64,000 nucleotides of DNA from an uncultured Candidatus Saccharibacteria bacterium (GCA_964402965.1 CAYODY010000001.1:5724-69723); one strand, 5' to 3'; numbered from the stretch's first letter, positions 2,743-38,000 are shown. Notes: generated by a model not told the origin, from the letters alone. Numbers and translations: made by a program.

Positions 2743-3267
2743 CTATTTCGAATCAATGATTTTCTCAAATGATTCAAAATCTTGTAAAAATTCTCCTACA
2801 AAGTCAGCATGTGCACTCAGTGCTTTCTGGGAACGAATCCTGAGGTACTGCTGGCCAATTTTTGTAATAGACTTCACATCATTTTCGGCAAGCACAATGT
2901 GCTTCCAAACTTTCTCCTCCTGTTCGTTAGTGTCGGCATACTCAAGCGCAGAACGGAAATCTTTAATAGAGTCGTTTGCACGGAGGTACGCATTTAGGAT
3001 ATCTTCGAACTTATTGCCGAAGTTATTGTTTTGTTCGAGTTTTTTAACGCCCGCTTCGAAATGCTCTGTAAACAAAGCTTCTCTTTGAATCCGCGCTTGT
3101 TGCGCTGCTTCATTGGCGTAGAAACTCAAAACCCAAAGTGAGTAAACACTTCCGACTGCGAAAAGAAAGATTCCTGCTAACTTCAACAGCTTAGATGCGC
3201 AGTTATCGATACAAAATGTCATCTTGGCTTCCTCCTGTTTCCTCTGCCTGTAGTCTGAGCAAATCAT
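2743..3267 (-). CDS. hypothetical membrane-anchored protein
   Basis: 174-aa ORF with one N-terminal TM helix (LLKLAGIFLFAVGSVYSLWVLSFY) and a helical remainder. No family recognised. A weak hairpin follows it at about 2700-2725. Confidence 0.4.
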   Translation of the reverse strand: MICSDYRQRKQEEAKMTFCIDNCASKLLKLAGIFLFAVGSVYSLWVLSFYANEAAQQARIQREALFTEHFEAGVKKLEQNNNFGNKFEDILNAYLRANDSIKDFRSALEYADTNEQEEKVWKHIVLAENDVKSITKIGQQYLRIRSQKALSAHADFVGEFLQDFESFEKIIDSK

Positions 3268-3344
3268 ACTCTTTTTGCTGTAAAAGTCAATGGCTTTGGT
3301 TAAATAAAACCCACTGTAGGTTAGTTTTCTGCTATTATATAGAC

Positions 3345-4361
3345 ATGTCTAAAGTTGCTTTGGTTAATATTGTCTACAATTCAATGAAATATATTCCGAA
3401 GGTTTTTCCTTCGGTATTAAATCAGACACATAAAAACTCAACCTTTTATGTAGTAATTGCAGGCAATGAAAATGGTGAAAAAGAGTTTATTCAAGAAAAC
3501 TATCCTGAAATTGTAATTATTGATCCAGGGTATAACATTGGTTTTGCTAAGGGTCATAATGAGCTGTTTTCTTCCATAGGTGCAGATTTTTTTCAGCTTG
3601 TTAATCCTGATTTAGTTCTAACTGAAAATTTTGTAGAGGAAATGCTAAAGCCATTTGAAGATCCAAACATTGGGGCAGTTTCTGGAAAAATTTTACAATA
3701 CGATTTCGAGAAAAATTCAACTACAAATATAATTGATACTACTGGAGTTCTTATTTCAAAATCTGGACGTGGCCGAGATAGGGGACAACATGAAGTAGAT
3801 TCTGGTCAGTACGATACTCAGACGAACTTAATTGCTGTTTCAGGCGCCGCGGCTATGTATCGAAAATCTGCTTTAGAAAGTGTAAAATATACGTATCCAA
3901 ACAGGCATGTAAAAGCAGGACAAACTGAGTATTTTGATGAAGAGTTTTTTATGTATTGGGAAGATGTAGATTTGTCTTGGCGAATAGTTAATAGTGGGTG
4001 GAAAATTCAGTACAACCCGAAAGCTATTGCTTACCATGGTAGAACAGCCGCATCTAGTCCTGGAGGGTACAAAAAAGTCTTGCAATTTATTAAACACCAT
4101 AAAAAAATATCTTCAAGAATTTTAGAGTGGAACTATAAAAATCACATTTTTATGTTCATAAAAAATTCACCTAAATTCTATTTTAAATTTTTTCAAAGGG
4201 AAATTTTCTATCAAATATACGTACTTGTTTTTGAATCAGCAACTTTAAAAATTCTGCCAACATTTTTCAAACAATTGAAAAGCATGTGGCAGAAAAGAAA
4301 ATTTATTCAATCAAACCGTAAAATCTCAATAGAAGATATGGAAAACCTTTTCACTAGCTAA
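3345..4361 (+). CDS. family-2 glycosyltransferase (rhamnosyltransferase-like)
   Basis: Start trimmed from track ORF 3195 to the in-frame ATG at 3345 (MSKVALVNIVYNSMKYIPKVFPSVLNQT is the GT2 N-terminus). Internal GT2 motifs are present (DPGYNIGFAKGHN, YWEDVDLSWR). It sits next to the rml operon. A TATTAT box at 3334-3339 suggests a very short leader. Confidence 0.75.
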   Translation: MSKVALVNIVYNSMKYIPKVFPSVLNQTHKNSTFYVVIAGNENGEKEFIQENYPEIVIIDPGYNIGFAKGHNELFSSIGADFFQLVNPDLVLTENFVEEMLKPFEDPNIGAVSGKILQYDFEKNSTTNIIDTTGVLISKSGRGRDRGQHEVDSGQYDTQTNLIAVSGAAAMYRKSALESVKYTYPNRHVKAGQTEYFDEEFFMYWEDVDLSWRIVNSGWKIQYNPKAIAYHGRTAASSPGGYKKVLQFIKHHKKISSRILEWNYKNHIFMFIKNSPKFYFKFFQREIFYQIYVLVFESATLKILPTFFKQLKSMWQKRKFIQSNRKISIEDMENLFTS

Positions 4362-5324: not shown

Positions 5325-6767
5325 ATGTCAGATGAATCTTTGCACCCCACAGGGGAACCTAAGAAACCGTTAATTGCGTCAGAACAAATGCGCAAGTTTT
5401 TAAATATGGAGTCTGGTCAATCACAGCAAGAACCACTACATGCGGGAGATATTCCACCAGACTTACCATTTTTAGAAACATTAGAAACTCCACCAAAAAA
5501 TGCTTTGGAAATAATGAGTGCAGGTGCAAATCCAAAAGTTGGAGAAGGGAAACATTCAAATCCAATCACTCAAATTTTGCGTCCTTCTACAGAAAAAGGC
5601 CACGAAGCATACGCGTTTGTTCTTTGGGCATTAAAGAGTATTGTTCCGTACGTTGTAATTTTCGCTATTGGGCTTGGCTTGTACTTTTTCTATTTCAGCG
5701 ATTTTTCTATTAACAATTTATTCAAGTCCAATAACTTAACAATTGAAAATGTTAGTACGACAACAAATGCAGATTTGGAAAAACTTAAGACTTCTGAAAA
5801 AATAAATTACGATGCTTGGATAAAACAATTTTTCTTTGAAGTAAATGATGCTGAAATTATTTCTATGGATACAGATGTATCTGGAAATGGTTTAACTAAC
5901 TTTGAAAAATATTTATTAAATTTAAATCCGAAAGTTTACAGTACTCGAGGGGGCAATCAGCCTGATGGGCAATTGGTAATAAATGGCACAAGTCCATGGA
6001 CCGGAAAACCTTTCACTGACAAACAAAAAGAATTAGTAGATAAATACTTAAATAAGGAAGTAATTAGTAATCGCATTACTGCTGCGGCATTAACACGTGG
6101 TGCAACAAAATTTGCGGAATATGTAAATCCTGATTCTCCATACTACATAACTCCAAGTACAGAACAAACCGGAGTACCTCAAACACCTGGTAGTTCAGGA
6201 ATCTATGAGCCAACAAATACAAACCCTGAAATTGTAAACAATCAAACGGCGGGGAATGTAGCACAGCAAACACAGAATCAATCTCAAGGAAATCTAAATT
6301 CAAACACAGATATCAATCTAAGTGTTCCTGGAAGAATAGAAATTCCTTCAAACAATATTTCAGTACCATTAATATGGACTACCGCTGTTGCAAATTTTGA
6401 AAAGGACTTAAAAAAGGGAGTTGTTCACTACCCAGGAACAGCGCTTCCAGGTCAAACTGGAACAAGTTACATTTCTGGACATTCCAGCGGATATCTTTGG
6501 GACAAGTCACCATACAAAACAATTTTTGCTGGTTTAGGAAATGTAAAAGATGGTACTTCGTTTACAGTTACAGTAACTCTTAAAAATGGAAAACAGGTTA
6601 GGTATAATTATGTTGTTGAACGTCGTGGGGAGTATGCAGCGAACGATCAAGCACAATTTGTGAACACAGCAGATTCTGTTGTAGCGCTATCTACATGTTG
6701 GCCAATAGGAACTACAGCAAAACGATTAGTTTTGTTTGGAAAACTCACTCAAACAGAGAATCTATAG
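5325..6767 (+). CDS. sortase-family transpeptidase (Cys type) with a long N-terminal cytoplasmic/low-complexity region and one TM helix
   Basis: The C-terminal ~150 aa carries the sortase catalytic triad context. This is VVHYPGTALPGQTGTSYISGHSS (His), ALSTCWPIG (the TLxTC-type Cys, codon tgt) and AKRLVLFG (Arg). A TM helix lies at about residues 100-125. Confidence 0.7.
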   Translation: MSDESLHPTGEPKKPLIASEQMRKFLNMESGQSQQEPLHAGDIPPDLPFLETLETPPKNALEIMSAGANPKVGEGKHSNPITQILRPSTEKGHEAYAFVLWALKSIVPYVVIFAIGLGLYFFYFSDFSINNLFKSNNLTIENVSTTTNADLEKLKTSEKINYDAWIKQFFFEVNDAEIISMDTDVSGNGLTNFEKYLLNLNPKVYSTRGGNQPDGQLVINGTSPWTGKPFTDKQKELVDKYLNKEVISNRITAAALTRGATKFAEYVNPDSPYYITPSTEQTGVPQTPGSSGIYEPTNTNPEIVNNQTAGNVAQQTQNQSQGNLNSNTDINLSVPGRIEIPSNNISVPLIWTTAVANFEKDLKKGVVHYPGTALPGQTGTSYISGHSSGYLWDKSPYKTIFAGLGNVKDGTSFTVTVTLKNGKQVRYNYVVERRGEYAANDQAQFVNTADSVVALSTCWPIGTTAKRLVLFGKLTQTENL

Positions 6768-6816
6768 TATTTCCTTAGTCAATACTTCATTAGATTTTAC
6801 TATTTTCCGCATATTT

Positions 6817-6840
6817 AAGCCATAAAAAATGGCTTTTTAT
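6817..6840 (+). terminator. rho-independent terminator after the sortase gene
   Basis: AAGCCAT-aaaaa-ATGGCTT hairpin followed by a TTTTAT run. Confidence 0.55.
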
Positions 6841-6871
6841 GTGCTATTATTTAATTATATACACAGCTATT

Positions 6872-6900
6872 GACTTATATGCATTTTTATGTTATATTAT
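6872..6900 (+). promoter_or_regulatory. sigma70-like promoter upstream of the GC-rich island gene
   Basis: TTGACT, a 17-nt spacer (tatatgcatttttatgt), then TATATT. The leader to the ATG at 7117 is about 215 nt. Confidence 0.5.
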
Positions 6901-7116
6901 TGGGTCATAGTTGAGTTTGGTGAGAAAACTGTACTCACAACCTATGGCTGATAGATTTATGTCCATCACCCTGAAATATTAACTTAGTCAGGGCTTTGGT
7001 GGACAATGATCTGTCTAATCAATATCAAACTGATAGTTAGCAGAAACTTTAGTAGGTTTGAACAATTGTTGTTTGAGTCGTTACTAAAGTACACAATTCC
7101 TGAGGAGGATAAAAAG

Positions 7117-8046
7117 ATGATTCAGAAATTTTTAATCGCAATATTTTTGCTGCTGGCGTTGTCAGTGGTCGGATTTGGCCAGGAATACAACCTGGTCAAG
7201 GTGCAGGACAACGGTGCTATACAGAAATGTGGCCCGTTGCCGGACTGGGACTTCTCAAAAGTCGTCCCATACAAGCCGCGATTCAGAACCGCAGCAGTCG
7301 GGTATGTTCGTGTCGAGAGATATAATAAAATCACTCTCGCTTGCGAACAAACGTCGTTGCCCAACTACCGTTCGAACAACGGTTATGGTTGGGTGCTAAA
7401 CGTCGAGGGAAGCCATTATGGTTTCACTAGTACTGGGCAAATTCGGTACCTTGGTACCGCTGATGGTGCTTACCTGAAATGTCACAACCACGTTGTGGGA
7501 TTTTGGGAGGTGAATGTGAATATTGTTGAGGAAAAGGAAGAATTTGTTCCTGTTCCGAAACCTTCGCCTTCACCTTCGCCCAGTCCCTCGCCTTCGCCGT
7601 TGCCTGTCGCACCGATTTGTAAAACGGTGAATGGTCAAGCCAACACTGTTGGTCTGACTATAGAGCAGGCCGTCAAGAGCGGTTTGCTTGTTGACGGAGA
7701 AGGAAACTGCGCCCAGCATCCTGAACCGGTGGTTCAGGAAAAAGTGAAGAAGAAAGGCGCTAACAAGTGGCTTTCTGCACTTTGTGGAGCCGCAGGTGGT
7801 GGGATAACCGCTTACCTGAGGACCGGACAGCTCGGCGGAACTCTAGCAGGTGCTGGAGTAGGCAGCGGTGCTGGCCTTGGTATAGGCTTCATTCCGGGTT
7901 CAAAAACCTGGTACGGTTGTTTTGGCGGCGCAGCGGGGTTGTTAATCCCGAAGAACGCCGTAAAGAACCAAAGTAACGGAGGAGGTCCAATCCGCGGTAG
8001 CGGAAACGGGCAAGGTGCGCCGGTCGTTAGGCCGACTCGCCAATAG
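7117..8046 (+). CDS. secreted protein with (PS)n linker and glycine-zipper C-terminus, encoded on a compositional (high-GC) island
   Basis: Start placed at ATG 7117, directly after a GAGGAGG RBS; the track ORF starts at 7006 in AT-rich sequence. Features in order are a signal peptide MIQKFLIAIFLLLALSVVGFG, a Cys-containing domain, PSPSPSPSPSPSPLP, a second Cys-containing segment and a Gly-rich hydrophobic tail (GAAGGGITAYL...GAGVGSGAGLGIGFIPG...GGAAGLLIP). GC content and codon usage (CTG, GGC, CCG) differ sharply from all neighbours. Confidence 0.6.
   Translation: MIQKFLIAIFLLLALSVVGFGQEYNLVKVQDNGAIQKCGPLPDWDFSKVVPYKPRFRTAAVGYVRVERYNKITLACEQTSLPNYRSNNGYGWVLNVEGSHYGFTSTGQIRYLGTADGAYLKCHNHVVGFWEVNVNIVEEKEEFVPVPKPSPSPSPSPSPSPLPVAPICKTVNGQANTVGLTIEQAVKSGLLVDGEGNCAQHPEPVVQEKVKKKGANKWLSALCGAAGGGITAYLRTGQLGGTLAGAGVGSGAGLGIGFIPGSKTWYGCFGGAAGLLIPKNAVKNQSNGGGPIRGSGNGQGAPVVRPTRQ
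7561..7602 (+). repeat. in-frame Pro-Ser dipeptide repeat coding tract
   Basis: ccttcgccttcaccttcgcccagtccctcgccttcgccg encodes PSPSPSPSPSPSP. Confidence 0.7.
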
Positions 8047-8080
8047 TCCCTAACGTAATCTGTCTCATCTGTCCTCTAGT

Positions 8081-8132
8081 CAGCGGAATCCATTTGCATT
8101 TATTTGCACTTGGTTTCCGCTGATTTTTTTTT
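8081..8132 (+). terminator. rho-independent terminator after the island gene
   Basis: CAGCGGAA ... TTCCGCTG stem with a long loop, followed by a T9 run. Confidence 0.5.
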
Positions 8133-8209
8133 GTTTAATTACATTAGGCTTCTAAAATTCCCCGAAACCATTAAATTTGTTATACTTAATACAAGTAATT
8201 TAATAAAAA

Positions 8210-8935
8210 ATGAAAAAACTATCAGTCGTCATTCCAGCATATAACGAGGAAAAACGTATTGCTGAAACTTTGGCAAACATCGACAGTTACTTAGAAAAAC
8301 AGAGTTATGACTACGAAATTATCGTAGTTGTAAATAATTCAAAAGATAGAACTGTTGAAGTTGTAAATGAACTAGAAAAATCCACGATTCAAAAAGCGAC
8401 AGCTTTAAACTTAAAAGAAGGTGGAAAAGGAAACGCTGTTAAGCGTGGGATTTTAGAGAAGGCAACAGGGGACATAATTATGTTCATGGATGCCGACAAT
8501 GCTACTCCAATTAATGAGATTGAAAAGTTTTTACCATATTTTGATCAAGGTTTTGATGTAGTAATTGGTTCAAGATATACAAACCCAGACTTGGTTAAAG
8601 TACATCAGCCTTTTTACCGAATTGTTCTTTCAAGAATGAGTAACTTGCTTATTCAATTCTTAGCAGTTCCTGGGATTAAAGATACTCAACTTGGTTTTAA
8701 AGCTTTTACAAACAAAGCGGCAAAAGAAATATTTCCTATCGTTACCGTGCTTCGTTGGGGTTTCGACATGGAAGTTCTAACAATTGCATTGGCACGTGGG
8801 TTTAAGATTAAAGAAATTGGTGTGTCTTGGACAGAACATGGTGGCGGACACGTTCCATTAATCGCATATGTTGAATCTTTAATTGATCTTTTCAAAATTA
8901 AATTACGTTCAATTACTGGTAAATACAAAAAATAG
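8210..8935 (+). CDS. polyprenol-phosphate glycosyltransferase (GtrB/Dpm1-like GT2)
   Basis: MKKLSVVIPAYNEEKRIAETL ... FMDADNATP (DAD motif) ... GSRY. Length is 241 aa, and there is no large C-terminal membrane domain, as in the GtrB/DPM1 family. Confidence 0.8.
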   Translation: MKKLSVVIPAYNEEKRIAETLANIDSYLEKQSYDYEIIVVVNNSKDRTVEVVNELEKSTIQKATALNLKEGGKGNAVKRGILEKATGDIIMFMDADNATPINEIEKFLPYFDQGFDVVIGSRYTNPDLVKVHQPFYRIVLSRMSNLLIQFLAVPGIKDTQLGFKAFTNKAAKEIFPIVTVLRWGFDMEVLTIALARGFKIKEIGVSWTEHGGGHVPLIAYVESLIDLFKIKLRSITGKYKK

Positions 8936-9022
8936 AATTTTAAAATAGATTCTATTAGCTTGCAAATTTCTGAAACAATTCCTCAACTCCGAACGTTATA
9001 CTTACAAATATCCAAATTATAA

Positions 9023-10885
9023 ATGAATAAATTCTTAGTTAAATTTTCTTTTGGTTTTTTAATCGCCGCTGTTATGGGCGGTGGTTTTGCTTTTTTTAGT
9101 GTTGAAGCTCAAGCAAAATCAGGCGAGGTAAACTATGTTATTCAATTTAAAAATTCTGAGTCAGTTCAAAATGCTCAAACTGCAGATCCTCAAATTAATT
9201 TAGAAAAAATTTACGGTTTTGCATCGGATTCTAAATTCGGTAGTTACTACCGATTCAGTTCTGCCAAATCTTTGGAGCAAATACGACATGACTTTAATGG
9301 GTTGTATAAAATTTTACAAGTAGATAATTCAATTACAACAAGTCTAAAAACTTCTGTACTCACTCCGGACGATCCAGGGTTTACAAAAAATTCAGCAAAC
9401 ACAGACAAACAATGGGGTTTAGTAAAAGCCGGATTTTTAGATGCATGGCAAAAAAGCACAGGTGACAAAAAAACAATAATTGCAATTGTAGATACAGGTA
9501 TAGATGGTACTCACGAAGATTTAAGAAATGCAAAAATTGTTAAAGGTTACGATGTAGCTAGCAAAAGTATAATTTCAGGTAAATCAAATTCAGATGACAA
9601 CGGACACGGAACTTTAATCGCTGGAGTTATTGCAGGAACAGCAAATAATTCCAAAGGAATTGTCGGTGCTGGTTATAACTTAGGGCTAATGCCAATTAAA
9701 GCTCTGGACGCATCTGGTTCCGGTACTTCATCTTCAATCTCTCAAGCAATTGTTTGGGCAACAGATAAAGGCGCAAGTGTAATTAACTTGTCTTTAGGTG
9801 GCATGGGCTTTGGTCATGACACAGTATTGGCAGAAGCCATAAGCTATGCTTTTGCGAATAATGTTGTAATAATTGCTGCGGCAGGAAATGATGTAGCAGT
9901 TACCGGAGGAAATTTAGATGTTGATCCAGTTTTTCCCATTTGTGATGATAACGGTAAGAATATGATAATCGGAGTCACTGCAACAGACGTTAATGATTTA
10001 AAACCTTCATTTGCAAACTATGGTAAGGCATGTGTAGATGTCTCTGCACCGGGACGTAGGATACTTTCTACTATTAATCATGATCCTGCTACTGGTGGAA
10101 TTTCTCCAAACTCATATGCGTATGCATCTGGGACATCTCTAGCAGTTCCATTCGTTTCTGCAGAAGCAGGACTTTTAAAATCGCTATATCCAAAAGCAAC
10201 AAATAGACAAATTAGAGATCGTATTCTAGCAACAGCAGACAATGTAGATAGTTTAAATATTAGTCAGTGTGCCGGAGGTTCGTGTAGAGGATTCCTTGGT
10301 TCTGGCAGAATTAATGTTGCCGCAAGTTTAGTTACGCAAATAATTACTTTAAATGATGGAGACTTAGTACAAGAACAATCATCAGGAAATTTTTACTATA
10401 TAAACGGTGGGAAGAAACAGCTTGTTAGTCCATTTGTACGAAGTCAACGTTTTGCATTCACTCCAGCAAAACTTGTAACCCAAACAGATTTAGATATGTT
10501 CTCTGAAGGTTCATACGCAGAACCTCAAGACGGAACATTAGTGAAAAGTCCAAATGATGGCGCAGTGTATTACATGCAGTCCGGCTTGCGTAGACCATTA
10601 ACTTTTCAAGTTTTCACAATGCGAGGCTATAAGTTTTCTGACATAGTTACGCTAACTAACGTTGAAGTGAATTCTTGGGTAGAAGGTAGTTTCCTTACAC
10701 CCCCAGATAATATTTTAGTAAGAGGAGAAAAAAATAAAACTTTGTACGCAATTACGAACGGAGTTTTGCATCCAATGAACTATAAATTCTATGTTGAAAG
10801 AAATTTACAAAGTATGCCAATTGTAATTTTCCCAGACAAAGATATTCTAAAGTTTTCTATCGGAGATGCATACATAATTCAATAA
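9023..10885 (+). CDS. secreted subtilisin-like serine protease (S8) with C-terminal tandem repeat domain
   Basis: A signal peptide is present. The S8 triad motifs are AIVDTGIDGTHEDL (Asp), NGHGTLIAG (His) and GTSLAVPFVS (Ser). The last ~180 aa consist of 3-4 copies of a ~55-aa module (G..YYI.NG.K...). Confidence 0.85.
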   Translation: MNKFLVKFSFGFLIAAVMGGGFAFFSVEAQAKSGEVNYVIQFKNSESVQNAQTADPQINLEKIYGFASDSKFGSYYRFSSAKSLEQIRHDFNGLYKILQVDNSITTSLKTSVLTPDDPGFTKNSANTDKQWGLVKAGFLDAWQKSTGDKKTIIAIVDTGIDGTHEDLRNAKIVKGYDVASKSIISGKSNSDDNGHGTLIAGVIAGTANNSKGIVGAGYNLGLMPIKALDASGSGTSSSISQAIVWATDKGASVINLSLGGMGFGHDTVLAEAISYAFANNVVIIAAAGNDVAVTGGNLDVDPVFPICDDNGKNMIIGVTATDVNDLKPSFANYGKACVDVSAPGRRILSTINHDPATGGISPNSYAYASGTSLAVPFVSAEAGLLKSLYPKATNRQIRDRILATADNVDSLNISQCAGGSCRGFLGSGRINVAASLVTQIITLNDGDLVQEQSSGNFYYINGGKKQLVSPFVRSQRFAFTPAKLVTQTDLDMFSEGSYAEPQDGTLVKSPNDGAVYYMQSGLRRPLTFQVFTMRGYKFSDIVTLTNVEVNSWVEGSFLTPPDNILVRGEKNKTLYAITNGVLHPMNYKFYVERNLQSMPIVIFPDKDILKFSIGDAYIIQ

Positions 10886-10945
10886 ATTAAGTTGCATTCA
10901 AAGTAGTTTTCTAGTATTGTTAATATACCCATAAAATAAATTCGC

Positions 10946-12718
10946 ATGAAGAAACAAACATCATTTATAATTATCACAAGTTTAATTTTTTCGTTCTTAA
11001 TTAACGGAAATTTTGTTTATGCACAAGAAGCAATTCAGGCAGGCTTCACTCCAAATAATTTAATTGATGATAGTGTTTTCTCAAACACAAACACTTTTTC
11101 AAGTGCATCAGGTATACAGCAATTTTTGCAGAGCAAAGGAAGTGTTTTAGCTAATACAAGTGAGTCATTCGTTGCGCAACTCAAAGAACCAACAAGTACG
11201 ATTTTAAAACAGACTTTGGAAGACCCACAGCCAAACTTAAACCGTAACAGAACTGCTGCAGAATTAATTTATGATGCATCTCGTTCAAGTGGATTAAACG
11301 CACAAGTTATCTTAGTTACTCTTAATAAAGAACAAAGTTTAATTTCTGGTCGCCAAAATGCAACCCCTGAACAACTTCAACGCGCATTAGACTTCTCAAT
11401 GGGTTTTGGTTGTCCAGATAGCCAGCCTTGTGGAAGTATTTACCAAGGTTTTTATGCTCAACTTTTCGGTGGTGTGGATGCGGAAAACAATCGTTACTTG
11501 GGAGCTGCTAAATCTTTAATGAAGTCTTTTCAAACTCCAGGTGGTCGTGGACCATACTACAATGGAGGCACAAGTAGAGTCGGGGATACTATTGTGTTAG
11601 ATAACACACTTGGTGGGTATGAAGGGGTTCAACCTCAACAAACAGTTAAGCTTTCAAATGCTGCAACCGCTGCGCTGTACAGATACACTCCTCACGTTTT
11701 CAATGGTAATTACAATTTTTGGAGATTCTTTAAAGCATATTTCGGTGCTCCAAATTCCAATTCAGTGAATACAAATACCAGAGTGAAAAATGCAAACCTT
11801 ATTCGTGAATCATCATCTTCTCCAATGTACATAGTTGAGAACGGTGGTAAATATAGAATCGTTCCTTTTGTAGCAAAAGCTAGAAAGTTAGACACTTCAA
11901 AAGTAAAAAATGTTTCGTCCGATGTTTTAAATAGCTACAACACTTTAGGTTTAGCTGCTGCTCCAGACAACACTTTAATTAAGTACAATGGCGCGTACTA
12001 CGTCTTTAAAAATAATTTAAAGCAACAAGTTTCTTTGGAACAAATTAAAGCAATGAATTTAAACTCAGCGAACGCTATAGAAGTTGAGCTAGTTGACTTT
12101 GCTTCATTCAACTCGTCAGATCCTGCTCCTGCACAACCTACTACTCCTGCAACTCCACCTGCTACTCCTGCTCCACTACCTTCAGGTATACCACCAGCAG
12201 GCAGTTTGGTTAAAAGTGCTTCCTCACCAACAATATACTTATTGGAAAATGGTCAAAAGAAGCCAATGGACGGAGAAATCTTCAGAAATAGAAAATTCAC
12301 TTTTGCAAATTTGGTTACTCTAACTCAAGCTCAAATAGATAGTATTCCGCTAGGTCCTTTCCCAGCCCCATTAGATAATACATATTTTAAAGATAAACTA
12401 GGTCAGCTATATGTATATAGAAACGGTAAACTAAGTACGATTTCAAAAATCGCAGCAACTCAGCGTTTAATAACTCCTGACTTCACTTTTGGAGAAGATT
12501 TAGTTAAATCATTGCCAATGGGGTCGCCTGTAATGCCAAAAGATGGAACGCTCGTAAAAGGAGATAAAAAGGCAGAGGTATACTTAATTAGTGGAGGGTT
12601 GGCATCTCCAATGTCTGGACCTGCATTTACTGCAAGGAAGTTTACTTACAGCCAAATCCAAACAATTACCCAATCAGAAATGGACTCATTTTCTAAAGGT
12701 CCAGCAATTACTAAATAG
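10946..12718 (+). CDS. secreted repeat protein sharing the ~55-aa module with the upstream S8 protease; N-terminal domain of unknown function
   Basis: A signal peptide is present. It is followed by a ~250-aa N-terminal domain, about five copies of the same module as in 9023..10885, and a Pro/Thr linker PAPAQPTTPATPPATPAPLP. Confidence 0.6.
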   Translation: MKKQTSFIIITSLIFSFLINGNFVYAQEAIQAGFTPNNLIDDSVFSNTNTFSSASGIQQFLQSKGSVLANTSESFVAQLKEPTSTILKQTLEDPQPNLNRNRTAAELIYDASRSSGLNAQVILVTLNKEQSLISGRQNATPEQLQRALDFSMGFGCPDSQPCGSIYQGFYAQLFGGVDAENNRYLGAAKSLMKSFQTPGGRGPYYNGGTSRVGDTIVLDNTLGGYEGVQPQQTVKLSNAATAALYRYTPHVFNGNYNFWRFFKAYFGAPNSNSVNTNTRVKNANLIRESSSSPMYIVENGGKYRIVPFVAKARKLDTSKVKNVSSDVLNSYNTLGLAAAPDNTLIKYNGAYYVFKNNLKQQVSLEQIKAMNLNSANAIEVELVDFASFNSSDPAPAQPTTPATPPATPAPLPSGIPPAGSLVKSASSPTIYLLENGQKKPMDGEIFRNRKFTFANLVTLTQAQIDSIPLGPFPAPLDNTYFKDKLGQLYVYRNGKLSTISKIAATQRLITPDFTFGEDLVKSLPMGSPVMPKDGTLVKGDKKAEVYLISGGLASPMSGPAFTARKFTYSQIQTITQSEMDSFSKGPAITK

Positions 12719-12744
12719 TAAAACTTGAAATTATTATTAGAAAA

Positions 12745-12771
12745 GCCCTCGTGAAAACGAGGACTTTTTTT
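12745..12771 (+). terminator. rho-independent terminator
   Basis: CCTCGT-gaaa-ACGAGG hairpin followed by T7. Confidence 0.6.
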
Positions 12772-12802
12772 ATAACTCATAAATTGATACAATGAATACA
12801 AC

Positions 12803-14242
12803 ATGTCCAGCCCATCCAAAAATATATTATGGTTAACAGTTTCTAGGGTAGTTTCTCTACTCCTTTTGTTTATTGCCTACAGACAACTGTTCAAATATTT
12901 AGGACCATACAACTATGGTCAATTTCAGTTTGTACTTTCGTATGTAACTCTATTTGGAGTGGTTATTGACTTTGGTTTACAGCAGTACATTGTAAAAAAG
13001 ATGAGCGAAGATCGTTCAAGGGCGAAACACTATTTCCATAATTTTTTAGCAGTAGAGGTTTTATTGGTCGCGCTAGTATATGCCGCAATGATCGGTGTTG
13101 CTCTATTTAACGGCTATGAACCAATAGTTTTTAAAGCCATTTTGGTGGCAGGTTTTGGAACTGCTATAACTGGGTTGTCCTATCCGTTCTTGGCTGTTGT
13201 TACTGCGTTCTATGATTTAAAAAAAGCTGCGTTTATTAATTTCTTGGCATCGGCTGTAAACGTAACAATAATTTTTGTGACTATCTATGTTGGTGGAAGT
13301 ATTGTAATGCTAACAACACAACAGGGGATTGTCGCAATTCTTTCTTTTATAATTTACTATCAGTTTGTACAGAAGTATATAGGCAAGCCTCATGTTCTGA
13401 AAGGAATGAGCGAGCTAGATTTCTCTTTAGTAAAAACTATGTTTGCGGCAGCATTGCCGTTCGCTATTCTAGTCGGGTTTAGCACTCTATACAATAGAAT
13501 TGATGTAGTTTTAATTAAACACATGTTGGGTTACACAGAAACAGGTCTATACTCAGCTGCGTATAAATTTTATGATTTGGTAGCATTTTTCCCAGCGGTT
13601 GTTTCTCATGCATTGTATCCATTGTTTGCAAGTTTAATGGTGACTCGTGACTTAGTACAAGTTAGATCTATTTTGGAAAAATATCTGCGTTTCATGATGA
13701 GTCTTGCTATACCAATGGGAGTCGGTGGAACTATTCTTGCCAAACCAATAATCACATTGCTCACAAATAGCAATGAGTATGCTGGTGCTGCTCCTGTCCT
13801 ATCTATTTTAGTTTGGGCGCCAGCAATTCTATTTGTTTACATAATTGTGAATTCTCTGGTTATTTCTCAATTAACAAAATGGGCAACTGCAATAACTGGC
13901 GTAAATGTCCTGGTTAATATAGTTGGAAACCTAATTCTATTACCAAGAATAGGAATTATTGCAGCAGCAATAATGACTGTCGTTTCAGAATTTTTGCAGG
14001 GTCTGTTCTATTTCTATTTCGTGCGCAAGAAAATTACTGATTTTAAATTTATTTCATATTTGTGGAAACCGATTATAGCTAGTGCAGTTATGGGATTAAG
14101 TATTTGGTATATACAGTATTTGCACGTTCTCATTTTAGTAGCAATTGCAGTTGTAGTTTACGCGGCATGTTTGTTCGTTCTTCGTTTCTTCCAAAAAGAC
14201 GATATCGCATTTATTAAGGGATTGCTTGGTCGTGGTGTTTAA
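12803..14242 (+). CDS. Wzx-like polysaccharide/teichoic-acid flippase (MOP superfamily)
   Basis: 479 aa with about 12-14 predicted TM helices. The N-terminal region is typical of the polysaccharide biosynthesis protein (Wzx/RfbX) family. Confidence 0.7.
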   Translation: MSSPSKNILWLTVSRVVSLLLLFIAYRQLFKYLGPYNYGQFQFVLSYVTLFGVVIDFGLQQYIVKKMSEDRSRAKHYFHNFLAVEVLLVALVYAAMIGVALFNGYEPIVFKAILVAGFGTAITGLSYPFLAVVTAFYDLKKAAFINFLASAVNVTIIFVTIYVGGSIVMLTTQQGIVAILSFIIYYQFVQKYIGKPHVLKGMSELDFSLVKTMFAAALPFAILVGFSTLYNRIDVVLIKHMLGYTETGLYSAAYKFYDLVAFFPAVVSHALYPLFASLMVTRDLVQVRSILEKYLRFMMSLAIPMGVGGTILAKPIITLLTNSNEYAGAAPVLSILVWAPAILFVYIIVNSLVISQLTKWATAITGVNVLVNIVGNLILLPRIGIIAAAIMTVVSEFLQGLFYFYFVRKKITDFKFISYLWKPIIASAVMGLSIWYIQYLHVLILVAIAVVVYAACLFVLRFFQKDDIAFIKGLLGRGV

Positions 14243-14756
14243 AAAAGAGAAACAATCTATTGAGCCAATTCGAGTGATGGTTTTTGGTACGTTCGATATG
14301 GTCCATGCAGGACATAGAAATATGTTTCAACAGGCAAGGGATTTGGTAAACCACTTTAATTCAAGAAATTCAGGAGTAAAAAACAATTCAGGAGTAAAAA
14401 GTTCTACTGCCGAAAACAAATTAAAACCGTATCTAATAGTTTCTATTGCAAGAGATAGAAACGTAAAACGCATTAAGGGCAGGAATGCGTCGCGCGGGGA
14501 GAGGGCGAGGATGGAGATGGTGGGTAAGGCGCGGGGTGTAAATAAAGTAGTTCTAGGTGCAACGGGGAATCATATTCCGCATATAGTGAAAGAAAAACCT
14601 GATATAATTGCATTAGGTTATGATCAAACCGCTTATGTCTCAGGATTAAAATCTGAGCTTAAAAAAGTTGGCTTGAAAACTAAAGTTGTTAGACTTAAGC
14701 CATATAAAGAACATATATATAAAACATCATTTTTAAAAAATAGAAAGTTAAAATAA
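14226..14756 (+). CDS. cytidylyltransferase-superfamily nucleotidyltransferase (RibL/TagD-like)
   Basis: GTFDMVHAGH is the (T/H)xGH nucleotidyltransferase motif. IVSIARDRNVKRIKGR and KPDIIALGYDQT resemble archaeal RibL FMN adenylyltransferase and TagD. The more likely start is ATG 14277 (VMVFGTFD). The gene contains an in-frame 18-bp tandem duplication and a short GC spike. Confidence 0.6.
   Translation: MVVVFKKEKQSIEPIRVMVFGTFDMVHAGHRNMFQQARDLVNHFNSRNSGVKNNSGVKSSTAENKLKPYLIVSIARDRNVKRIKGRNASRGERARMEMVGKARGVNKVVLGATGNHIPHIVKEKPDIIALGYDQTAYVSGLKSELKKVGLKTKVVRLKPYKEHIYKTSFLKNRKLK
14368..14403 (+). repeat. 18-bp in-frame tandem duplication
   Basis: aattcaggagtaaaaaac followed by aattcaggagtaaaaagt, encoding NSGVKN NSGVKS. 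Confidence 0.7.
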
Positions 14757-14769
14757 CTAATAAAAATAT

Positions 14770-16164
14770 ATGCAACAAAATCACAAAAATTTAATTCAAA
14801 TCGCCGCATTGGTTGCAGTAACAGCCGTAGGTGTTTTTTGGATAGTTAACTACAAGTCAAACGTTCCAATTAAACAATCAAATATAAATTCGGGCTTTAA
14901 CGAATTACTTTCAAATAAACTTACGATTAGTAATGTTGGCGCAGAGTCTTTCGGTGATTTAAAAAAGTTTGCTCAAGTTGTGGAGACAAAAAATTCTGGA
15001 GATGGTGGTAATAGCGCAAATACAGTTGTAGCTACAAACAAAGTTGGAAGTAATTCTCCACAGAGCGAAATTTACTCTGGAACTGCAGTTGCCACATCCA
15101 GCGCTGGGAATGCTACTGGTTTTGGTATGGGAGTAGGCGGCGGTGTCCCTGATTCAAAAATGATTGCCCCAGGTGAACCATATCCTATTCCTCAAAATTT
15201 CTCCTTTGTGTACAAGGGAAAGCCATTGGAAGAACTTAATCTTTTATCTGAAAATCAATCAGTCATGAAGCGTAAGCTTCCGCAACAAATATCTGGTTTT
15301 GTAAATCAAATCGCTGGGTTCTTAAGTTTTGGTCTAGTAGATATTAATAAATTTACAGATACTAAATTGTGGAATATTAGTTTTTATGAAGATCATGAAT
15401 TCGGATATAGTTTTTATGGTGACTTTCAAAACGGAACAGTAAATATTTCTCAAAATTATGAAAAGTGGCCGCAACCAAAATATGGTTGTGAAAAAGATTA
15501 TTGTGGTAATTTGCCTCAATTAACTGAGAACCAACTACCAACAAATGACGAAGCAATTGCAATTGCTTCTAAATTCCTCGCTGATTACGGAATATCACTA
15601 GATGGATATGGCTCTCCAGTAGTTCAAGATTATTGGAGAAATGAAATTGTTCCATTAGGTCAAGTACGTTATATTCCTGAACAAGTACAAGTTATCTATC
15701 CATTAGAACTTGAAGGAAAGCAGATATATGATGAAGGGTATAGTGTCTATGGGCTTACAGTAATGGTTGATGCCCGTACTAAGCGTGTTGTTAATGTATA
15801 CGAGCTGAATTCGAAACAGTATGAAAAGTCAGAGTATGCTGGCGAAATAGATGTCAAAAAAATTCTGAAAATTGCTGAGGCAGGTGGATTTAGAAACTAT
15901 TTGTATCAGGATCCAAATGCAAAAACAGTAAAACTAGAATTAGAAACTCCTCAAGTTCAATTAATAAAGATGTGGTACTACGACGAAGCAAAAAAATTCA
16001 ACGGAGAATTGTATGTTCCATCGTTAGTATTTCCAATAAAAAATGCTCAAGAATCTAAGTATTGGCAAAAAAGTTTGTATGTCCCACTTGTGAAAGATAT
16101 TTTAGATGCTGAGCAAAGTAAACCAATACCAGTAGATTTAGAAAAACAATATGAATCACGATGA
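14770..16164 (+). CDS. hypothetical membrane-anchored extracellular protein
   Basis: 464 aa. There is an N-terminal TM (LIQIAALVAVTAVGVFWIV), a Gly/Ser-rich linker and a large C-terminal domain. No family recognised. Confidence 0.45.
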   Translation: MQQNHKNLIQIAALVAVTAVGVFWIVNYKSNVPIKQSNINSGFNELLSNKLTISNVGAESFGDLKKFAQVVETKNSGDGGNSANTVVATNKVGSNSPQSEIYSGTAVATSSAGNATGFGMGVGGGVPDSKMIAPGEPYPIPQNFSFVYKGKPLEELNLLSENQSVMKRKLPQQISGFVNQIAGFLSFGLVDINKFTDTKLWNISFYEDHEFGYSFYGDFQNGTVNISQNYEKWPQPKYGCEKDYCGNLPQLTENQLPTNDEAIAIASKFLADYGISLDGYGSPVVQDYWRNEIVPLGQVRYIPEQVQVIYPLELEGKQIYDEGYSVYGLTVMVDARTKRVVNVYELNSKQYEKSEYAGEIDVKKILKIAEAGGFRNYLYQDPNAKTVKLELETPQVQLIKMWYYDEAKKFNGELYVPSLVFPIKNAQESKYWQKSLYVPLVKDILDAEQSKPIPVDLEKQYESR

Positions 16165-35052: not shown

Positions 35053-38000
35053 ATGAAATATATGAACAATTACGAATCTAGTCCGCGTTCAGTTTCAAGT
35101 TATGGCACTCAAGCAAAGCCGTCTTTTCGAGACTTGGCGCTTAAGAGTGCTGTTTTTGTAACTGCATTTTCGATGGTCTTTTCAGTTTTCATGCCAATAG
35201 CAAAAACTGCACAAGCCAACCATGATCCATTCAATGGTCAGGTATTTGTTAAAGAAAATAAAAACCATAAGGTAGATATTTGTCACGCTCCAGAAGGTCA
35301 AGGTGGAGCAAAATATAATCAGCAAAATGTGAGTATTGATTCAATTGTAAAAAACAATGGACATGACTCTCATTCTTCAGATGTAATCCCACCATTTCAC
35401 TACAAAGAAAAAAATAACTCTCAAAATGTAATTTCTTATAGTGGCAAAAATTGGAATTCATTAAACGAAGCTATTTGGAATGCAGATTGTAAAGTAGCAA
35501 AGTTAACTCTACTTAAAAAAGTTCAGGGTGGAGACGCTCTAGCTACTAGCTGGACTCTAAACGCTGATGGACCAGTAGATTTATCTGGTGCAACAGGCAC
35601 AAGCGCTGTTTCAAATAAAACAGTTCCTGCTGCTCAATACACTCTTTCAGAAACTGGCCCATCTGGATACTCAGCATCAAATTGGGAATGTGTTAACAAA
35701 TCTACTCAACCGGTTGCTGTAACTGGAGGAAATATTGTTACTTTAACAGATAGTTCCGAAGTAACATGTACAATTACTAATACTTTTATTGATGTGGAAA
35801 TCGATCCATGTCTTTTAGATAACATTGTAAATGAAGATTGTAACCCAGATCCATGTGATGAGTTAACTAAGAATTTGCTCACAAATCAGGTAATGGATTG
35901 TAATCCATGTGATTTAGAATCTGCAGTAAATAACCCAGATTGTAACCCAGATCCTTGTGATCCTAATATCGTCGCATCAAAGCATGATTCAGAATCAAAT
36001 AATGAAAATGATAATTGTCCAAAGCCAAAAAAGCGCTATTTAGTTATTAAAAAAGTTTGGCAAGGTTTTGAAGGTGAAGCAGGTCCTTCTAATAAAGGTG
36101 AAATTCAGGTTAATGTAAACTCAGACCTAGATGAAGAAGAATGTGATTACGACAAAAAAGGGGAGTTTTCTTGTAAAATCCGTTTCACCGAAGGCACAAC
36201 TGTTTCTATTGATGAAGAAAATATTCCAGCTGGATGGACAGTAGATCAGTCAACAGTAGGCGACATAGTTCCAAATTGTGATGAAGATTCCGAAGATGAT
36301 AATGTTGGGCCTTTCAAACTATTTGGCAAAAAAGACGACAAGGGTGATGAAGATGATAAAGATGATAAAGATGATAAGGATTGTACACATACAATCGTAA
36401 ATGTTTACAAACCAGCGGAACCTTGTGGAACAGAATTAGTAGCGAACGGAAATTTTGAACTTCCAGAAGTTAAGGATGGTGCTAATTGGGAAGTTTTCCC
36501 ATCAGGTACTCCAGGAATGGGTTGGTCTGTTAATTGGGTTCGCGAAAGCAAAGACTCTCCAGTTCCAGCTAATATGGAATTGCATGAAGGCGTAAATGGA
36601 TGGCTAGCACATAGCAGTAACCAATACGCTGAATTGGATTCAGACTGGGGAGGTCCTTCTAGTAATCAAAATGGCGAAGATGCATCTGTTGTTATGTACC
36701 AAGATTTAATTACTGTACCAGGCGGAACATACACAGTTAGCTTATGGACATCTCCACGTCCAGGCCAAGGCAATGCTCAAAACAAGACTGAAGTCAAAAT
36801 GGGTTCTACATTGCTAGATACTATTATTGAAGATGGGTCTTCAAACAGCAATACTGTTTGGACTAAGCACACTTACAGTTTTGTAGCAGAAGAATCAATG
36901 ACCCGTTTAAGCATTACAGACTTAGGTGTTGGTAATACTCTAGGTGGTTTTGTAGATGATGTTTCTGTAAAACAAGATTGTCTTTCAAACGTTACAATCT
37001 GTAAATATGATAATACTGAAACTCCACTATCTAACTGGAATGTATTATTAAAGGGCGATTTGTTAGAAACAGTTACTGTAAATTCTAATAGTTCAACTGG
37101 GGCTAACTCTGTAAACGCACTGGAATCAGGCCAAGATTATTTGGTTGAAGTTTCAGGGACATGGCAAAATCGTACATTCGAAACTGTAGATGCAAGTTAC
37201 ACAACTCCAGACAGCTGGTCCACAGTACTTCCTGCCCCTCAAGGTGGTTACCCGGATGACTTGTTGGAAACTCAAATAAATGGAAATTTTGTAAATTGGG
37301 GTCCTTACTCAAGCGGTCATAAATATCAGCTAACAATGGCTGGTAATGGAAGTACAGCAAATTTCAGAGTATTCGATGGTGATGCAAATACTAATACTCA
37401 ATTCCCAGATTGGTTCGGAGATAATATTGGATCTTTAACAGTTAAGATTTACCCTGTATACCAAGGAATCACTGGTGTTAGTGGTTGTGTAACTTTAGAA
37501 AATGTTCCGTACAACAGCTATAAGCTTGATGAAATAATGCAAGCAGGTTGGGAAAACCAATCCGGTCAAAACACAACTTCTGTTGTAGATTCATCTACTG
37601 AAACATTTAATCTAGTAAACAAATGTACTGGTGAAGAATGTCGTCAAACAAAACCACAACTACACTTAATTAAAGTAGTGTGTGATGATTTCTCTGACAT
37701 TCAAGGAAACTATAGTGCAGATGAATATGATGATACTAATGGTAACTATGTTCACTTCAACAATTACCCAGAATTTAATAACGTTGTAAAACCTGTTAAC
37801 CCAGAAGAAATCCCAAGTTCCGAATCTGGTTGTGAAACAAGATCTGGTTGGAGCTTTACTCTTTCTTCTGATCAAAACCAAGATCAGGATGTACAAACAG
37901 TGACTACTGGTGAATCAGGAGAATATGTTGGCGATCTACCAGAAAGCGGAGTTCTATGGGTTAGCGAAGTAATGCAAAAAGGTTACGACTTTGGTGCCAT

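Follow-up and report, generated by a model that had tools for sequence, protein, structure and literature searches.

In a 64,000-nucleotide stretch of DNA from an uncultured bacterium (GCA_964402965.1, CAYODY010000001.1:5724-69723; hereafter the window, with positions counted from its first letter), a single GC-rich gene lies between a sortase-domain gene and a GT2 glycosyltransferase gene in a low-GC cell-envelope locus. The source organism is Candidatus Saccharibacteria, and relatives of the neighbouring sortase-domain protein came from metagenome-assembled genomes mostly labelled Candidatus Saccharibacteria or Patescibacteria. The gene, at 7117-8046, is probably the present allele of a variable surface-protein gene at a fixed site, the body of which was replaced by recombination from a GC-richer relative. 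An earlier note on this DNA had proposed a recent horizontal acquisition from a higher-GC donor, a new gene dropped into a glycan locus. The codon usage did fit a GC-richer source, but all relatives examined had secreted-protein genes, either homologous or analogous to it, at the same site, and the proposal was narrowed from an insertion to a relative's allele replacing a resident one.

Composition of the gene and occupancy of its site

The coding sequence (CDS) at 7117-8046 (+ strand, 309 aa) had a GC content of 0.519, with 0.577, 0.471 and 0.510 at the first, second and third codon positions (GC1, GC2 and GC3). The other long open reading frames (ORFs) of the window (n = 55) had a mean GC of 0.372 ± 0.029 and a mean GC3 of 0.281 ± 0.034, with a highest GC3 of 0.345, so that the gene stood out from them with z = 5.1 for GC and z = 6.8 for GC3. 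The 930-bp segment with the highest GC in the 64 kb started at 7151 (0.527), and the runner-up reached 0.439. The single-gene anomaly which the earlier note had pointed out is therefore real (GC3 0.51 against 0.28 ± 0.03, with borders at 7149 and 8091), as is the GC content above 60% which it had given for 7561-7620 (63% measured). Its figure of about 55% GC holds for the last third of the CDS only and not for the whole (51.9%). Among the codons which it had listed as unlike those of the neighbours, CTG, CCG and GCC were enriched, together with TCG, GTC and ACC, but GGC only marginally so.

The maximum likelihood change-points of the GC-rich block were at 7149 (support 7137-7156) and 8091 (support 8040-8124), with a log likelihood ratio of 54. 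The left edge falls 11 codons into the signal peptide and the right edge between the stop codon and the terminator, and the promoter and leader, at 31%-36% GC, lie outside the block. When the amino acid sequence of the target was combined with host codon usage the expected values were 0.435 for GC and 0.263 for GC3, and thus about half of the GC excess is due to Gly/Ala/Pro content and about half to codon choice. The log-likelihood of the target codons was -373 to -376 under Saccharibacteria of 44%-46% GC (-373 for L054, of 46% GC) and -420 under its own genome, which is 47 units worse. The tetranucleotide statistics proposed in the earlier note gave a divided result. The raw distance of the target was, like its GC and GC3, extreme (the largest among 131 windows, z = 9.1), but after correction for GC the signature was ordinary and not foreign (correlation with the genome 0.41 against 0.53 ± 0.09, z = -1.3), with 13 of the 131 windows lower than the target in a test of limited power at 930 bp. 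This ordinary GC-corrected signature fits a related donor.

Gene order in the relatives was GT2, sortase, gap, GT2b, S8 protease, 590-aa secreted protein and flippase, and in those examined the gap was 1.4-3.2 kb long and always held one or two secreted-protein genes. The flanks of this slot were the same in 15 loci, on the left the sortase gene followed by the leader, on the right the GT2 gene with its promoter, and all five family members for which DNA context could be recovered were located in it. No empty site was found in the relatives which span the slot; all were occupied. Identity to most syntenic relatives was 54%-64% for the sortase-domain protein, and the GT2 protein at 8210-8935 was 79%-88% identical across the leader-bearing clade. 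When metagenomes were scanned by means of GT2b, the block of GT2b, S8 protease, 590-aa protein and flippase extended to lineages with about 55% GT2b identity, the modules of the target protein occurred only in the narrow leader-bearing clade, and two leader-carrying metagenome loci had a GT2b at least 85% identical to that of the window.

The promoter and leader of the gene belong to the site. The near-consensus promoter which the earlier note had ascribed to the gene (TTGACT-17-TATATT) is present, but 2 nt from where it had been placed, and it is resident and conserved in the clade, since relatives keep an equivalent promoter (TTGACA-17-TG.TATACT) at the same place. The perfect GAGGAGG ribosome-binding site (RBS) was found as described, and so was the gene's own terminator, a hairpin followed by nine T (inverted repeat I2, 8080-8098 / 8105-8123); in every relative, too, the last slot gene is followed by a terminator. 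The element TTTGCTATAMT...AAGTAA stands upstream of GT2b in most of them. The idea that the promoter, leader and RBS had arrived with the gene did not hold, because they are conserved in the clade and at host GC, and the GC of the variable part of the leader (the P4 segment) tracked that of the host genome over 14 loci (r = 0.77, p = 0.001). In the window P4 is AT-rich with its hairpin shape unchanged, which indicates that the leader is older in this genome than the coding body.

Exchange at the slot was observed directly in a pair of relatives, L024 and L008. These two loci were 100% identical at the end of the sortase gene and 99.17% identical over 4681 bp from the tail of the slot gene through GT2b, the S8 protease and the 590-aa protein. 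The leader and signal peptide were 86.7% identical and the Pro/Thr linker 90.7%, and between the heads, which are of type A in L024 and of type B in L008, similarity was undetectable. This is a replacement of the head by homologous recombination, with breakpoints in the leader/signal-peptide region and in the linker.

The GC3 of the slot gene exceeded that of the host in 13 of 14 genomes (mean difference +0.10, Wilcoxon p = 0.0004), with differences from -0.02 (L028) and +0.006 (L027) up to a maximum of +0.24 in the window. A graded excess of this kind would be expected if the genes had resided in their hosts for different lengths of time. In L027, with a genome of 34% GC, the same head, Cys-repeat and tail modules are encoded at a GC3 of 0.24, and the protein therefore has no need for GC-rich codons. 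The slot genes of the two GC-richest clade members (44%-47% GC), L028 and L025, were target-like in composition (GC 0.50-0.53, GC3 0.45-0.50).

In the mechanism which we propose, the resident locus would be a variable surface-protein gene between the sortase gene and the conserved GT2 gene in the cell-envelope locus of one Saccharibacteria clade. The body of the gene, 7149-8091, would have been brought in by homologous recombination from a relative of roughly 44%-46% GC, with a left crossover in the conserved leader and signal-peptide region and a right crossover in the 3' untranslated region (UTR) or in the conserved GT2 promoter. The incoming segment would have replaced an earlier allele and would still be short of drifting to the 37% GC of its host, and it would be transcribed from the resident near-consensus promoter through the resident three-hairpin leader of ~210 nt. 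We infer the donor and the crossover sites in this genome, and also a role of the protein in contact with host cells or the environment under diversifying pressure.

The proposed allele import and the competing explanations

Several observations weigh against import of a relative's allele. The donor allele was not found, the closest head being 41% and the closest tail 45% identical, and because of this the word "recent" is taken from composition alone. Replacement was seen directly only in L008/L024 and not in the species of the window, where the protein was identical in all seven samples. Surface display, topology and function are prediction only, and the tail was modelled by AlphaFold2 with a predicted local distance difference test (pLDDT) score below 50. 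The GC3 excess is one-sided (13 of 14 genomes, p = 0.0004), and the slot gene of L009, with a GC3 of 0.58, lies above the background found in all sampled members of the leader-bearing clade. A bias in one direction only suggests that some force, for example GC-biased gene conversion at a recombination hot spot, systematically raises GC beside or in place of import. A recombination hot spot at which gene conversion of this kind (or mRNA selection) keeps the slot genes GC-rich with no recent import is unlikely to be the whole explanation, but it is a serious partial rival which is compatible with import and can coexist with it. Besides the general excess and the case of L009, it is favoured by the recombination directly shown in L008/L024 and by a report that, across bacteria, the GC content of genes is positively related to signs of recombination within them (Lassalle et al. 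2015, PMC4450053). It does not readily account for L027 and L028, which have no excess despite the same modules, or for the leader, which lies inside the recombining zone and yet is at host GC, and a GC3 shift of +0.24 with edges as sharp as those found here (11 codons into the gene and shortly after the stop) is more than would be expected of a gradual process.

An origin in an unrelated organism of higher GC, such as an actinobacterial host, a phage or a plasmid, from which the gene would have come as a new island with its own promoter and terminator, is largely refuted and we regard it as very improbable. Cultivated Saccharibacteria live on high-GC Actinobacteria, and the large shift in GC and GC3 and the arrangement as a unit with promoter, leader and terminator would suit such a donor. 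Against this, all homologues found came from related Saccharibacteria and from this one slot, the promoter and leader are those of the clade at host GC, and the GC-corrected tetranucleotide signature is ordinary. There was no tRNA in the 64 kb, no integrase and no general flanking repeat, and the neighbours of the target are the sortase and GT2 genes and not mobility genes. A tblastn search of phage and plasmid collections returned nothing, the 37 matches to the leader pattern in viral contigs were all rejected by the covariance model, and a word-indexed search of 5.8 billion proteins gave nothing at E ≤ 0.01. Slightly less credible again is a secreted membrane-active weapon, either a glycine-zipper bacteriocin or a contact-dependent toxin, as the earlier note had suggested from the Gly-rich hydrophobic tail. 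A homologous tail almost reaches the Pfam glycine-zipper models, and the head is variable as in polymorphic toxins, but here the variable part is N-terminal and the Gly-rich module, joined to varied heads, is conserved at the C-terminus, the reverse of the order in those toxins. The alternative tail type of the family is not Gly-zipper-like, there was no toxin domain, immunity gene, dedicated exporter or processing signal near the sortase and GT2 neighbours, and Pfam, NCBIfam, PHROGs and PADLOC gave no credible hit for the protein and the fold search no match. That the anomaly is an artefact, produced by chimeric assembly or by the composition of a protein rich in Gly, Ala and Pro, has a negligible chance. 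Short contigs from five samples end near the gene borders, and amino acid make-up alone lifts the expected GC to 0.435, but a GC3 of 0.51 against an expected 0.26 is beyond the reach of amino acid content, the reading frame, leader and terminator are unbroken, and the contig breaks sit in the most AT-rich flanks, where low-coverage assemblies probably often fail. The same arrangement was present in independent contigs of other samples, L001 (23 kb) and L002 (4.6 kb), with flanking genes which match those of the window at 99.8%-100% identity on both sides, and the identical target protein is on record in seven samples. A chimeric junction at the borders, which the earlier note had named as a ground for rejecting the island, is ruled out by these contigs, as they show the same junctions.

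A mosaic protein family and a structured leader

The features which the earlier note had read in the protein (a signal peptide, a Cys-containing domain, a (PS)6 linker, a second small Cys domain and a Gly-rich tail) were all found. The protein contains seven Cys, and hydropathy segments were located at residues 218-234, 242-262 and 268-282. In the AlphaFold2 model the pLDDT was about 90 for the head and about 94 for the Cys mini-domain, and no fold match was detectable for the head. From these predictions the product would be exported, would present a disulfide-containing head and a small domain with a Cys bridge on its Pro/Ser linker, and would be anchored in the membrane by the Gly-rich tail. 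Two Cys of the tail, 223 (ALCGA, 7783-7785) and 268 (YGCFGG, 7918-7920), were kept in four of four target-type tails. The Gly-rich region may be membrane-spanning or may form a compact disulfide-linked unit, as the low-confidence model leaves room for both. The (PS)6 linker at 7549-7604 consists of four imperfect 12-nt tandem units (CCTTCGCC...), which could allow in-frame changes of length by slippage.

An exhaustive phmmer search of 1.84 billion representatives gave 15 hits, of which about 12 were genuine clusters; P0012, P0014 and P0015 were rejected as they match the Pro/Ser linker only. The hits included P0001, with an E-value of 2.3e-29 over the head, and P0005, with 2.1e-21 over the linker, Cys domain and tail. 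A match to InlK was also rejected (14.5 bits against a cut-off of 1100), since it is confined to the E-rich stretch and the first part of the Pro/Ser linker. The family search suggested in the earlier note thus yielded a narrow mosaic family, but no named family and no fold relative.

Head type A, with the motif CG.LP.WD...C.QTSLPQY..NNGYGWV...YLGTPDGQYLRCHN and invariant C38, C76 and C122, is carried by the target and by P0001-4, P0006-10 and P0013, and the unrelated head type B by L008, P0005 and P0011. The Cys mini-domain follows the pattern C..(V)..G..N..LTI.QA...GY.VD....C and was detected in one to three copies. The tails are of two types, the Gly-rich hydrophobic tail of the target (45% identical to that of P0005) and a tail with CPxCP...RLTGG and a beta-rich domain. 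P0001 combines a target-type head with the other tail, P0005 the other head with a target-type tail, and across the family head, Cys-repeat and tail modules are combined as in a mosaic. When the target was compared by profile with four gap proteins carrying the other tail, only the Cys mini-domain matched (E = 0.0019, probability 14%), and for this reason we do not claim full-length homology for all slot proteins.

The leader of ~215 nt with hairpins described in the earlier note measured ~212 nt in the window (~180-225 nt across loci) and folded into three hairpin domains, with z = -4.5 for the whole leader. The 5' hairpin, P0, began 1-3 nt from the predicted transcription start in 12 loci, and its stem showed compensatory changes among relatives (GTCATAG/CTATGAC, GTCAGT/ACTGAC and GTCAGAGTC/GATTCTGAT). 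The middle domain, or leader core, is a conserved, co-varying structure of ~80 nt which is absent from Rfam. Over 14 distinct sequences 10 of its 23 pairs had changed on both sides, and 94% of cells were paired, compared with 87% in shuffles (0 of 500 reached the observed value) and 30%-44% in slid controls. All five measures beat 500 of 500 shuffles. These values come from 14 related sequences in an alignment fitted to the model (A7), and an independent MAFFT alignment (A5) gives the same picture.

The covariance model of the leader scored 83.7 bits on the + strand of the window and 17.6 bits on the - strand, and across loci 52-94 bits on the + strand and at most about 40 bits on the - strand. 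With its compensatory changes and its far stronger + strand the core is a structured, strand-specific RNA. Exactly one copy was found per locus, always after the sortase gene (15 loci), with no second copy in the 64-kb window. The folding proposed in the earlier note therefore gave structured, co-varying hairpins, but the Rfam search proposed with it, run on 6500-8400, matched no family: the best scores were 13-20 bits against thresholds of 54-100 and belonged to eukaryotic microRNA and small nucleolar RNA models on the opposite strand. A leader peptide encoded by a small ORF such as MTDRLLLITPGILT in the core was rejected, as the start is CTG, GTG or GTT in 6 of 15 leaders, a 1-nt indel shifts the frame, there is no third-position bias and the changes are compensatory at the RNA level.

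Conservation in the leader peaks in the stems and the terminal loop and not in the junctions, and the leader is kept although the proteins downstream are only 13%-25% identical. The RBS lies within an open, A-rich stretch and was mostly open across folds; no intrinsic terminator was seen within the leader, and no consistent RBS-sequestering helix in 15 folds, either of which could act as the expression platform of a riboswitch. Candidate functions are stabilisation of the mRNA or control by a trans-acting factor. Since the middle hairpin is conserved in sequence, the 13-nt loop included, recognition by a specific factor is suggested. A more far-reaching and rather doubtful proposal is that the ~80-nt hairpin is a new regulatory RNA of soil Saccharibacteria which is read, by way of its invariant loop and stem sequence, by a dedicated protein or RNA and controls a shuffled host-attachment surface protein. 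If this were so, a head of unseen fold would decide to which host cell the episymbiont attaches, and the GC excess would be the mark left by an unusually high rate of allele exchange at a locus which sets host specificity.

Filter-free searches and a refined model, run to extend the leader family, returned only L042, a marginal case with 17-19 bits and similar scores on both strands. Its segment 1668-1735 combines a promoter, a start with GGTCA and a long hairpin, at a marginal 19 bits. In L039 a hairpin with the loop AATATTCATTAG at about 2830-2880 precedes a lipoprotein-like gene of 57% GC (2922-3845) in a locus of 41.5% GC, and in L041 (487-516) only the flanks AUGACAGA...UCUAACA are kept. 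Distant Saccharibacteria have a similar leader layout at the same place with scores which were not significant, and both the age and the distribution of the leader may be greater than the model reveals.

Related systems and further features of the locus

To our knowledge the way in which ultrasmall episymbionts such as Saccharibacteria recognise and hold their hosts is largely unexplained, and most of their surface proteins are unannotated. The present locus offers a concrete candidate, a clade-specific surface protein whose head is swapped wholesale between near-identical genomes and whose gene stands beside sortase and envelope-glycan genes. Two of its components have no counterpart in current libraries, namely a head domain which was modelled with confidence but lacks a fold relative, and a co-varying leader RNA. 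Compositional islands that arise by horizontal transfer and later undergo amelioration are a classical concept, and the gene resembles them in its sharp GC and GC3 shift, in its sharp borders and in the graded adjustment of related genes across hosts. It differs in that a relative's allele replaces a resident gene at a homologous site, with no mobility genes, tRNA or att repeats and with no new function added. In genome scanning a single-gene GC island can thus mark allele turnover at a resident hypervariable locus and does not have to signal a newly gained function, and the pattern over 14 genomes forms a small natural series in which amelioration might be told apart from GC-biased gene conversion.

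The closest known kind of system is the recombination-exchanged surface-protein cassette at a fixed locus, of which the S-layer cassette of Clostridioides difficile is an example (PMC7677006; PMC6254364). Both have a variable surface-protein gene at a fixed position with conserved flanks, near envelope or glycosylation genes, with a strong promoter of its own and with exchange between lineages by homologous recombination (here in L008/L024). The protein family, the domains and the organism are unrelated. The slot proteins are small (about 260-480 aa), apparently tail-anchored in the membrane and built of shuffled modules; nothing points to their forming an S-layer, and the contrast in composition with the host is much stronger. 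What is new in comparison with known cassettes is the module-shuffled unrelated family, the new leader RNA and the unusually strong contrast in composition.

For the leader, the nearest parallel is the structured 5' UTR which stabilises the abundant surface-protein mRNA of slpA in lactobacilli (PMC10221546). Shared with it are the length, a hairpin at or near the predicted 5' end, further stable hairpins, an RBS in an open A-rich stretch and a near-consensus promoter; the middle hairpin, in contrast, is here conserved in sequence together with its 13-nt loop, and the transcription start is a predicted one. The 5' UTR of ompA is a further example of an mRNA-stabilising structured leader. The tail shares GxxxG-rich hydrophobic segments with the Pfam glycine zippers PF13488 (Gly-zipper_Omp) and PF13441 (Gly-zipper_YMGG), and the description as a glycine-zipper-type tail in the earlier note was reasonable in so far as the P0005 tail scored 24.6 bits with PF13488 (cut-off 25) and 24.3 bits with PF13441 (cut-off 28.9). 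The target tail itself scored 8.2 bits (E = 3.2), all scores were under the curated cut-offs, and the target differs in its two conserved Cys and in having three hydrophobic segments in place of the usual pair.

The position of the target immediately downstream of a sortase gene recalls LPXTG sortase substrates, but the target family is without the canonical C-terminal sorting signal. A regular expression scan of all ORFs found no C-terminal xPxTG signal in the target or its family, and both tail types have only an (R/K)x(0-1)TG motif ahead of the Gly-rich stretch, which we report as a lead. The sortase-domain protein scored 41.3 bits with the general sortase family TIGR01076 of NCBIfam (cut-off 39.35), and the class C, D and E models were below their cut-offs. 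Distant Saccharibacteria have at the same position large repeat proteins whose C-terminus is made up of (A/T)P(K/T)TG, a hydrophobic segment and a basic tail and which, judged by these signals, appear to be canonical sortase substrates. In the window the sole canonical sortase substrate found was a 1421-aa protein at 35053-39318 (+), 28 kb away from the sortase gene, with LPRTG followed by a hydrophobic segment and a basic tail at its end. The features of the locus are listed in Table 1.

Table 1. Features of the slot and its flanks, with positions in the window unless a relative's locus is named.
Feature	Position	Strand	Basis or remark
Sortase-domain protein, 480 aa	5325..6767	+	Pfam Sortase 2.2e-17; conserved left neighbour of slot
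Terminator-like hairpin ending sortase transcription unit	6817..6835	+	Terminator scan; -8.0 kcal/mol
Resident promoter TTGACT-17-(TG)TATATT	6870..6898	+	Promoter scan, 10/12 matches, TG extension
5'-terminal leader hairpin P0	6903..6949	+	Folds; starts within a few nt of predicted transcription start
Leader core, long interrupted hairpin, 23 pairs, conserved loop AAUAUUAACUUAG	6944..7022	+	RNAalifold
Third leader hairpin P4	7046..7090	+	Folds; AT-rich version of domain which relatives close with CCGCG/CGCGG
Ribosome-binding site GAGGAGG	7102..7108	+	8 nt ahead of ATG
Target CDS, 309 aa, modular secreted, membrane-anchored (predicted)	7117..8046	+	Translation; phmmer search; module HMMs
Signal peptide	aa 1-21, 7117-7179	+	
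Head domain type A	aa 22-137, 7180-7527	+	
E-rich and (PS)6 linker	aa 138-167, 7528-7617	+	
Cys mini-domain	aa 168-198, 7618-7710	+	
Gly-rich hydrophobic tail	aa 214-282, 7756-7962	+	
Basic Gly/Pro-rich C-terminus	aa 283-309, 7963-8043	+	
GC-rich block	7149..8091	.	52.9% GC within, 33.6% outside; two-change-point likelihood segmentation
Intrinsic terminator, hairpin then T9	8078..8133	+	Hairpin 8078-8125, -27.5 kcal/mol
Conserved promoter element of downstream GT2 gene, TTTGTTATACT	8176..8186	+	Start of conserved right flank
GT2 glycosyltransferase, 241 aa	8210..8935	+	Pfam Glycos_transf_2 2e-30; conserved right neighbour of slot
Second small slot protein	L009 13022-13378; L010 6412-6990; L016 13477-14289; L027 7487-8254; L029 6456-6851		

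A second small slot protein, rich in Gln/Asn/Tyr and GC-elevated, is encoded in many relatives and is missing from the window genome; in several of them its C-terminus is like ...RPDIRV.T..Y. In L016 the sortase gene and the leader are separated by a GC-rich insert (11379-11674, about 50% GC). Its translation contains an internal repeat (VLGLRPA... twice), and the insert is possibly a small repeat element. A 12-nt direct repeat, ATCTGTCT(A/C)ATC, brackets the CDS of the window at 7009-7020 (3' end of the leader hairpin) and 8058-8069 (past the stop). L008 and L024 have a similar CTGTCTCA...CCTCTA stretch in the 3' UTR and the other relatives are without it, and a repeat-bounded cassette was rejected because the repeat around the CDS is not general among relatives.

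Five short contigs from different samples carried the leader core, gene and terminator only. Their right breaks were all at 8145-8193 and in four of them the left breaks were at 6908-6951, within the most AT-rich flanks (27%-31% GC); the fifth, L003, diverges from the window on the left at 6929. Low coverage of AT-rich DNA is the likely cause of these breaks, with strain-variable flanks as the alternative. In this scaffold, which is from another sample, an unrelated 117 nt (L003 1-117), with its own TTGACA-like promoter and a GC-rich hairpin, is joined to the window sequence at 6929 ahead of the identical gene and leader core; this 5' flank had no match among the sequences compared, and it stems either from a chimera in the scaffold or from a second genomic context of the same allele. 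Over the 17.9 kb in which the window was compared with L001, none of the 37 differences fell at 5680-15596 and 28 of them fell within ~530 bp at 15597-16128, inside the ORF 14770-16164 (464 aa; no Pfam hit recorded for the L001 copy), and this segment looks like a short recombination tract in another gene of the envelope locus.

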